36,453 bases of DNA from a virus. Taxonomy: Duplodnaviria > Heunggongvirae > Uroviricota > Caudoviricetes. Position numbers: made by a program. Shown here piece after piece: positions 30,001 through 33,000 of the stretch (position 1 is the stretch's first letter; each line of letters begins with the position of its first letter). The stretch lies in IMG/VR virus record IMGVR_UViG_2740892234_000020; one strand, written 5' to 3'.

Positions 30001-33000
30001 AGAGCCGATTTATGTTTAATGAAGAAAAAGTTGCGCAAATGGCAGCGTATTTGCTGAAAAAGCATGGCGGATCTATGCGTTTCATTAAGCTGAAGCAGCA
30101 ACGGTAATGGCGAATAGCATTTATGAGCAAAATAATCTTGATATGTTATTAGGCGATCTGATGTAACCGGGATGATGTTCACCCCTTATCGCCGGGGAAC
30201 AATACCGGCAATCAGAATTGCGGATGGAACTATTCAGGCCCACGATGATATCGATGAGGAGTTTTTTCAGCCAGTATTGGATGGCTTTCTTATATCCAAA
30301 TATACGCCATTTGACATCCTCCACGCCCTGAAGGACGGGGTTTTACAGCGCACCGGATAAGATTCGGTGTTTTGTTGAAAAATACTGTGATAACAAACAG
30401 AAAACCCGTCAGTAAGACGGGCTTAGCAAGCTGGGACGGTTACTTTAATAATTTCAGTGCCTTTACATCCACTTCAACACTGCTCAGGTCTTTATCAATT
30501 TCACCCTCAATTCTTACTTTGTCTTTCGGAGAAACATTCTGACCGGCCCATATGCTGTCATCGATATCCGTGACAATTGTCCCGCTATTGTCACGAAACT
30601 CATAACGTTCATCACCCACTTTTTTAACGATGCTCCCTTCAAGGATAACCCATGCATCATCCTTCAGTTCTTTTGCCTGCGCTACTGTTGAACGCTCTGC
30701 TTCAGGCCCTTGGAAACCGCCCTGCTGTGCAAAAGCGCCAAAAGACACACCAGAAATAAGTGCTGCAATCAATACCTTTTTCATTCATAGTCCTCTTTCA
30801 GAGATGAACATTCAAACAGCATTTTCAGTATGGTAAAGCGCGGGTGCGTTGAGGATGCCTGACACATCAGAGGTGGCGGGAGATTACTCCCCCGCTTGGT
30901 CTCTTACTTCTCAGATTCGTAGTCTACGAAGACAGCGACCTCCGTCTGACCGGTTCGGATTCGCACCTCGCAGAGGTCTTTCCTCGTTACCAGTGCCGTC
31001 ACTATGACGGTTAAACAGATGACGATCAGGGCGATTAACATCGCCTTTTGCTGCTTCATAGCCTGCTTCTCCTTGCCTTTCGGCACGTAAGAGGCTAACC
31101 TACATGTGTTCAGCATGGATTGAGCCTCAGATTAATGTTAAGCGTCTTGCCGGACGCGTAATGTTAACTGGNNNNNNNNNNGTTGTCATGTATGGGGGCT
31201 GTTTGTTATGACACCCTGTGTTTGGAATGAATATTTAATAACAGGTGTCTGGAAATATAGGGGCAAATCCACTGGATAGGCTATTGGGGCGTGAGAATCG
31301 AATGGAGAGAAGGGCTGTGGCTCTGGAAAGGCAATTAAATGGAGGTGTCGATTTTTTAAGGAGTGTTAATAACTATTTTCAGAGTGTCATGGCAGAACAC
31401 AGAGAAAATAAAACAAGTAATAAAATATTAATGGAAAAAATAAATTCTTGTGTATTTGGAACGGATTCTAATCACTTTTCTTGCCCGGAGTCATTTTTGA
31501 CATGCCCGATAACGCTGGACACACCTGAGAATGGAGTGTTCATGAGAAACTCACAAGGTGCTGAGATATGCTCTCTATATGATAAGGACGCGTTAGTGCA
31601 ACTTGTTGAAACTGGTGGAGCTCATCCTCTGAGTCGAGAACCTATAACAGAATCAATGATTATGAGAAAAGACGAATGTCACTTTGATTCAAAAAAAGAA
31701 GCCTTTGTTGCAAGTGATGCTTAATTTTTTCTGTTGGTGTGTTTTATATTAATAGTTTATTATAATAGTGCCATGTAAGGATATATTGCCTGAACAATTA
31801 TTCAGACAATATTTTTCTTGCTTTATATGGTGATTAACTTATTGAAAATATGCTTCTTATATTGTGTTTTTATTTTTAAATACTGTTTTGTTGAAGGGGG
31901 TATATGGGTAATGCGTAAAAACATTGTTTTGTTATATTAAAATGACACTTGTCTTTGCTTATAATCATTTCTGGAGCAAAGGGGTCACGGCTGAGGGGGT
32001 GGAGAGCGTTACGCAGGATAAGTTCAGTCAATGCTTCCTGATCATATAATGCACATATTTCTGAATTTCGAGCATTTCTGACAAAAACACCTGTCTCAGG
32101 AATATGTAGCGTTATCGGACAATTAAGATGTTCCTCAGTACAGGAAAAGTCTTGTAAACTAACGGGAAATGCATTCGAATTTATTCGATCTAGTAGTGTT
32201 TTTATGACGCTTTCCTGCACAAGCGGGGCAGCTTGCCTCTGCTCCAGATATAAGCTGTATGCCTGCAGAAAAGTGTTACCTCCGTTAAGTTGTCTTGTCA
32301 GGCTGTCTGCGAGATGATGAGCCTCTCTTGCCCCAAGATGGTCCCAAAGTCCACCAGGAATAGGCTCAACACTAAAACCATCCATAAACTGGATATAATG
32401 AAGCCTCATATTACGGCCTCCTATAGTAATAGTGTCATTCTGGTTGCTTCTTGCAATATGTCGTAAAGCCTCCAGCTCATTTTCCGGCAATACACTTCCA
32501 TTAGAAAAATTTAATATGACTGGCATATTATTATCCTTTTTAATCCATATTGTGAACTATATTGGTAACAAGAGTCAACATACCGCTCATGATATGTGAA
32601 TAAAACAATACTATTTTTAATAGAATATTATTGCATGCATGTTTTTTCTGGCTACAATAAACACAAGTATGCAATATTGTAAACACTTTTTATAAAAAGG
32701 AATTATAATGCCGATGAATACTACAGGTACGTCTTTCAGCTCTTTTGGTATAAGTTGCCATAGAGAAAACTCCTTCAGGAACTCTTTCCTAGGGAAGAAT
32801 GATGAGGTCATAAAATGTTCAATGGGAGAACGGACGATTCACTTTTCTGTTCGCAAATTTAGCGGCAATATACTGGATACAGTGAACAGGCAGAATACTA
32901 AAGATATTAATGGGTGGATAAAAGATGAACGGATAGTATATCCCTCAAGGGTGATCAACCAGGAGATTGATAATTACTGTTTTCAAAAAAATGCAAAAAT

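Follow-up and report, generated by a model that had tools for sequence, protein, structure and literature searches.

The subject of this analysis is a hok-type locus on the minus strand of IMG/VR virus record IMGVR_UViG_2740892234_000020, a stretch of Caudoviricetes DNA of 36,453 nucleotides (nt) which was analyzed at its full length and is called the window below. The locus is almost certainly the mokW-hokW-sokW type I toxin-antitoxin locus of 933W/Sp5-like Shiga toxin (Stx) phages, cut by the end of an assembly contig, and it is a locus already known, which has been named, annotated and experimentally characterized. The 772 bases at 30400-31171 were 100% identical to phage 933W (AF125520) and to about 40 other Stx phages, and also to many chromosomes of enterohaemorrhagic Escherichia coli (EHEC), so that the hok open reading frames (ORFs) found there are not chance occurrences. 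In AF125520, mokW is annotated at 58460-58672 (31116-30904 of the window, minus strand) as "protein MokW ... similar to Gef+leader protein", hokW at 58460-58615 (31059-30904, minus strand) as "host killer protein", with a stop codon common to both, and sokW at 58664-58734 (31108-31178, plus strand) as a misc_RNA, "SokW antisense RNA". The window and 933W share the same ORFs, frames and antisense gene, and in both a YgiW-family gene and the 2806-amino-acid (aa) L0134 protein lie downstream. The window locus differs from that of 933W in one way, namely that it is cut after mRNA nt 58 and Sok nt 64 by the contig end; elsewhere in its phage segment, the window matches 933W at about 99% rather than 100% identity.

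An earlier reading made from the sequence only had placed a Hok/Gef toxin at 30904-31059 on the minus strand within a canonical hok-family locus, and both statements held. The toxin hokW, a 51-aa Hok/Gef membrane protein recognized by Pfam and by its identity with 933W, is read from an internal ATG at 31059 and has the sequence MKQQKAMLIALIVICLTVIVTALVTRKDLCEVRIRTGQTEVAVFVDYESEK; it matched the Pfam family HOK_GEF (PF01848) with 81.1 bits against a cut-off of 22 bits, over profile positions 1-42 of 42. The leader frame mokW (30904-31116, minus strand) has 70 codons and consists of 19 codons plus hokW in one frame with one stop, starting at ATG 31116, ending at the stop codon 30904-30906 and encoding MLNTCRLASYVPKGKEKQA followed by MKQQKAML...ESEK, and in this 70-aa form the same profile scored 79.8 bits with the domain at residues 25-66. 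The distance from the mok ATG to the hok ATG is 57 nt, and thus the two starts are in frame and the 19 in-frame codons described ahead of hok are present as stated. Each start is preceded by a Shine-Dalgarno (SD) sequence on the minus strand, the mok SD GAGG at 31125-31128 being 8 nt 5' of the mok AUG, and the hok SD AAGGAG at 31069-31074, which lies within mok, being 9 nt 5' of the hok AUG and kept in hokC, hokB and the IncF plasmid locus.

The 19 codons had been contrasted with the mok frame of classical hok loci. This contrast does not hold, because mokW is annotated in AF125520 with the stop of hokW and mokC/hokC of E. coli K-12 has the same 19-codon in-frame layout, so that by comparison of the loci the extension is itself the mok leader frame, in the normal layout of the gef/hokC-hokW subgroup. 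In the K-12 RefSeq record, mokC spans 16751-16960 and hokC 16751-16903, so that mokC is longer by 57 nt (19 codons) and the stop is shared. A comparison with chromosomal hok loci for mok and sok elements had been proposed, and mokC/hokC/sokC matched the layout of mokW/hokW/sokW. MokW and MokC have 74% aa identity over 70 aa, with the pattern MLNTCR-x6-K-x-KEK-x-A followed by the Hok part, their 5' leaders are near-identical (GGGTGCTTGAGGCT...AACGGCAGATAGAGAAAAGCCCC), and the overlap of SokC with mokC, over its first 9 nt, parallels that of SokW with mokW. The K-12 locus differs in being chromosomal rather than phage-borne, in having a Sok stem region 18 nt shorter, and in diverging 3' of the stop beside an IS186 copy, so that no counterpart of the fbi element described below aligns there.

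Other relatives place mok out of frame. The K-12 hokB/mokB/sokB locus has the same architecture, with Sok over the mok start, but mokB starts 58 nt 5' of hokB, has its own stop and is out of frame. The IncF plasmid Mok, annotated as DUF5431, likewise starts 58 nt 5' of a 52-aa Hok, and in plasmid R1 the start codons of mok (116-118) and hok (174-176) are again 58 nt apart (PMC9841398). The R1/IncF hok/mok/sok (parB) locus shares with hokW the three-gene logic, a similar mRNA position of the mok AUG (113 in hokW in comparison to 116 in R1), an mRNA of about 390 to 400 nt, tac/fbi and anti-SD elements (on the hokW side in the predicted fold), and in the 5' part of mok a conserved core, TAGCCTCTTA...GGCAAGGAGAAG, which carries the Sok promoter and the hok SD. 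It differs in the 58-nt offset, which makes Mok a peptide in a different frame (DUF5431) with its own stop, in a Hok that is reported to be 44% identical to HokW (PMC8621323), and in its role, which is plasmid post-segregational killing in R1 whereas hokW is a reported aid to phage release.

Across the four leaders (hokW, hokC, hokB and IncF plasmid) the nucleotide blocks TAGCCTCTTA and GGCAAGGAGAA are common. The block GCCTCTTAC sits one base out of register when hokW and hokC are compared, and the frame is recovered further on, so that homologous bases yield ASY in one and PLT in the other; in the middle of the extension GCCTCTTAC and CAAGGAGAAG are kept as nucleotides and the shifted frames read LASYVPKG in MokW in comparison to VPLTDRKV in MokC. 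Since homologous bases are read in different frames, and since the leader is out of frame in hokB and the plasmid loci, the constraint on the mok part is on RNA and promoter sequence and not on the peptide. This agrees with the published view of R1, in which mok translation, not the mok product, is what counts (PMC9841398). A difference of one base in leader length (57 in comparison to 58 nt) is thus enough for mok to be seen either as an N-terminal extension or as a separate frame.

The sequence-only reading had also contrasted the locus with those having a Sok antisense RNA, but the Sok promoter, its start and 64 of 71 nt are present on the plus strand at 31073-31171. The promoter (31073-31101, plus strand) has in its sequence a -35 element TTGCCT (31073-31078), a 17-nt spacer and a -10 element TAACCT (31096-31101), and the departures from wild type in primer YO-421, with which Takada et al. 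(2021) made a promoter-less sokW mutant, lie on the -10 region. The RNA gene itself occupies 31108-31171 on the plus strand and starts at 31108 as in the AF125520 annotation; its last 7 nt (GGCUUUU, the stem closure and U-tail) fall in or past a run of Ns at 31172-31181. When the 71-nt SokW of the complete locus was folded, a 14-nt single-stranded 5' tail and a long hairpin with a U-tail were predicted (-29.9 kcal/mol, z -4.95).

The 3' two-thirds of the hok mRNA leader are retained at 31054-31171 on the minus strand, beginning at mRNA nt 58 and corresponding to positions 57-157 of the Rfam model RF01794, which gave 49.5 bits (E 2.8e-10) with the match flagged as 5'-cut. The complete and identical locus of strain EDL933 matched the model from position 1 to 157 with 113.5 bits. 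When a 393-nt mRNA from this locus was folded, the minimum-free-energy structure paired nt 1-12 with nt 375-387 (z -5.8). The 5'-terminal GGGUGCUUGAGG (nt 1-12) is tac, which is not in the window, and its predicted partner is fbi, CCUCAACGCACCC, at the 3' end of the hok mRNA (30842-30854, minus strand), placed by the predicted fold of the identical EDL933 locus. In the same full-length fold, the mok SD GAGG is predicted to pair with an upstream anti-SD (ucb), GCCCCAG. In the hokW mRNA, the mok and hok AUGs stand at nt 113 and nt 170, respectively, near the 116 and 174 of R1. Directly 3' of the hok stop, a stem-loop GCGGGGGAG-UAAU-CUCCCGC (30876-30895, minus strand) was recognized from the sequence and the predicted fold. 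The window thus retains the mok SD, mok, hok, the Sok promoter and body, the hairpin after the stop, and fbi.

Two side observations concern this RNA. RF01794 carries the name "sok antitoxin", and it matched the sense strand, covering the stretch between the 5' end of the hok mRNA (GGGUGCUUGAGG) and the hok AUG (EDL933 5944-6118; window 31054-31171); judged from these matches, the model in practice describes the hok mRNA leader rather than the antisense Sok RNA. On the strand of hok, a YgiW/BOF-family gene of 114 aa (30440-30841, minus strand; Pfam BOF, 113.7 bits) starts 57 nt past fbi, and a consensus scan between fbi and this gene gave no intrinsic terminator.

The experimental characterization is that of Takada et al. 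[quoted passage not shown] The primers and probes of that study agree base for base, either with the window or, for the upstream part, with the identical EDL933 locus: primers YO-357 and YO-369 match exactly at the ends of hokW, and the sokW probe YO-592 equals 31108-31137 of the window. According to that report, HokW, cloned in its 51-aa form from the internal ATG, is toxic by itself, and SokW expressed from its own promoter neutralizes it, partly via RNase III and Hfq (PMC8621323). After induction by mitomycin C or heat, SokW is described as being lost and HokW-3FLAG as appearing in the inner membrane, in a RecA-dependent manner and about 1 h ahead of endolysin; deletion of the locus is reported to halve phage release, so that two-fold more phage is released with the locus (PMC8621323). 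Shorter hokW RNAs of uncharacterized nature are mentioned there (PMC8621323), and in the available text the tag is on the shared C-terminus, mokW is not treated and the 70-aa and 51-aa forms are not told apart. A second paper, Faridani 2006 (PMC1635323), was consulted about hok loci of O157 or 933W and had nothing to add on them.

A mechanism may be proposed by homology with R1 hok/sok and with gef/hokC. A stable and highly folded hok mRNA of about 390 nt would be transcribed, and would be silent at full length with its 5' tac paired to its 3' fbi and the mok ribosome-binding site hidden by the upstream anti-SD. Trimming at the 3' end would open the mRNA, ribosomes would then begin at mok, and their passage over the first 19 codons would let hok translation start at its AUG. 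SokW, an unstable antisense RNA made from the promoter inside mok, would pair with the mok initiation region and block translation of mok and hence of hok, with the duplex marked for RNase III. Once SokW is gone, HokW would be made, enter the inner membrane and damage the cell. For R1, it has been shown that hok translation is coupled to that of mok and that 3' processing brings about activation (PMC9841398).

Several points weigh against the identification of a complete hokW locus working in this way. An Rfam scan of the whole window at gathering scores was empty, the 5'-cut RF01794 match being less than the gathering score of 59, which we ascribe to the leader being cut by the contig end, as the complete locus scores well above it. 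The window is without the hok promoter, tac and most of the anti-SD (mRNA nt 1-57) and without the last 7 nt of SokW, and we infer the intactness of the locus in the source genome from identical loci elsewhere. In addition, a simple consensus scan of the complete locus gave no sigma-70 promoter and no intrinsic terminator, the sokW promoter falling under the scan threshold; the promoters were hence assigned by homology with hokC and by the published sokW promoter mutant. Finally, the tac/fbi switching, the 3' processing and the mok-hok coupling would apply to hokW by analogy with its relatives.

The missing part of the leader leads to the question of the N run. The run at 31172-31181 that had been pointed out is real and has exactly 10 Ns, and the leader and antisense region do run into it, leaving the copy in the window incomplete. 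The window holds four N runs, each of exactly 10 N, the other three lying within 11610-12369. Window positions 1-31171 are collinear with 933W 27823-58727 at about 99% identity, and this collinearity stops at 31171. Positions 31182-36453 were a 100% match to the end of a different lambdoid prophage located at dusA, and are 100% identical in strain 2013C-3264. This prophage end carries a NleG fragment (31245-31724, plus strand), which the annotation of complete genomes gives as a pseudogene without its N-terminus, NleG (31876-32526, minus strand), the bfpT-regulated chaperone TrcA (32708-33298, plus strand), DinI and the integrase (33854-34951, minus strand), next to dusA (35040-36077, plus strand); in complete genomes tail-fibre genes lie beyond. 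At the junction, the hok side reads ...GGCAGATAGAGAAAAGCC, its 933W-type continuation would be CCAGTTAAC, and the NleG side past the Ns reads GTTGTCATGTATGGGGGC.

An alternative explanation is that the truncation is real, the source genome having undergone a deletion or rearrangement which attached the other prophage's end to the hok leader at about 31171 and left a relic without promoter and tac and with an orphan Sok. The deposited scaffold, in which the contig of the NleG/dusA prophage stands beside hok, is in its favor, but we regard it as extremely improbable. The break falls exactly where the sequence turns into a repeat, the 101 nt just upstream of it occurring at 5 to 8 places per genome among the listed best-matching strains, which are mostly O157:H7 EHEC; all four N runs have the same length of 10 N, and the other three stand in repeats with overlapping contig ends. 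The complete genome of strain 13E0780 carries the two sides with 99.9-100% identity, about 1.7 Mb apart, and the two sides were within 1.25 kb of each other in 0 of 5426 complete genomes, so that the 10-N run joins contigs which are not neighbours in any of them. Complete genomes have the missing leader and then homologues of L0139-L0142, and the part still present shows no decay, being 100% identical to functional copies. The N runs are thus best read, from these comparisons, as scaffold spacers at repeat-induced contig ends, the two sides of the run at 31172-31181 not being one prophage: assembly from short reads broke off within a repeat present in several copies, and the scaffold linked this contig to an unrelated one through 10 Ns, with the result that the hok promoter, mRNA nt 1-57 and 7 nt of SokW are missing. 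The earlier statement that the regulatory part may be incomplete therefore stands for the window copy but not as biology, being best explained as an assembly artefact at a multi-copy repeat, and the suggestion of a decayed relic falls for the same reason, as the Ns join an unrelated dusA prophage and complete genomes carry the locus intact. Two further candidates for the gap were rejected, namely 10 masked bases of contiguous sequence, since the bases past the Ns mismatch the 933W/EDL933 leader and belong to the dusA-integrated prophage, and an insertion sequence (IS) at the gap, since the far flank is no continuation of the hok leader.

It could also be argued that the 70-aa ORF from ATG 31116 is the sole toxin product, with no internal initiation and no role of the extension as a leader peptide. 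The frames are fused, several phage records annotate the long form alone as "MokW protein", and a translated mok, having no stop before that of hok, must give a 70-aa chain. The Pfam domain, however, begins only at residue 25 of the 70-aa form, a strong AAGGAG stands 9 nt 5' of the internal ATG, and the 51-aa form cloned from that ATG with primer YO-357 is reported to be toxic alone (PMC8621323). The one-base shift between MokW and MokC in mid-extension, where GCCTCTTAC and CAAGGAGAAG are kept as nucleotides and read in shifted frames, the homologous leader being out of frame in hokB and the plasmid loci, and the R1 finding that mok translation matters and not its product (PMC9841398) also argue against it, and we consider this explanation very unlikely. 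With the two-start arrangement of mokW as leader frame and hokW as toxin, a related consequence is that each ribosome which starts at mok and reads through must yield a 70-aa extended HokW, because mokW is in frame. That such a 70-aa proteoform plays a part of its own in the early lysis reported for Sp5, other than that of the 51-aa toxin, is unlikely; if it does, its toxicity or its membrane targeting might be different, or it might act as a decoy.

The sequence-only reading had further counted two Hok-family genes on opposite strands, and this was confirmed for the 933W-like phage, the second being a 46-aa Hok/Gef ORF at 18103-18243 on the plus strand (PF01848, 24.4 bits in comparison to the cut-off of 22). 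The ORF lies between lom and the L0129 homologue in a locus extending over 17954-18312 (plus strand); it is without annotation in the 1999 record of 933W, and its counterpart in EDL933 RefSeq is a "Hok/Gef family protein". Relatives of this locus were found in 1644 of the 5426 genomes, with a best complete-genome match of just 98.6%, and a listed O157:H7 copy, in strain Z1767, was 88% identical. RF01794 matched over all 157 positions with 36 bits (E 1e-6), which is less than the gathering score. In the predicted 359-nt mRNA, a 5' GGGUGCC pairs with a 3' GGCACCC (z -7.5), and the sequence contains an antisense promoter TTGACT-18-TAACCT, so the second locus has, as modelled, a full hok-type RNA context. 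No ORF having a start codon extends over the hok start there, the upstream frames being closed, for example by TAG at 18072-18074, and the second locus seems on this evidence to be without a canonical mok.

The other three N runs (11610-11619, 11951-11960 and 12360-12369) are in collagen-like (Gly-X-Y) repeats of the homologue of the tail-fibre gene L0121. The flanking pieces overlap by about 64 to 87 nt in 933W coordinates, and the piece at 11623-11950 is just 91% identical. These runs are scaffold joints at repeats, and the gene model in this region is thus unreliable.

As a discovery the locus has little weight, since it is known, the in-frame mok is a known layout, and the missing part is an assembly artefact. 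Features which abut 10-N runs in this window are not to be taken as truncated or decayed, and the sequence on either side of such a run is not to be assumed to belong to one prophage. For the hok family, where a Hok gene seems to carry an "in-frame N-terminal extension", this is to be taken as mok, the frame relation of which flips with a difference of one nt (57 in comparison to 58) in the leader.

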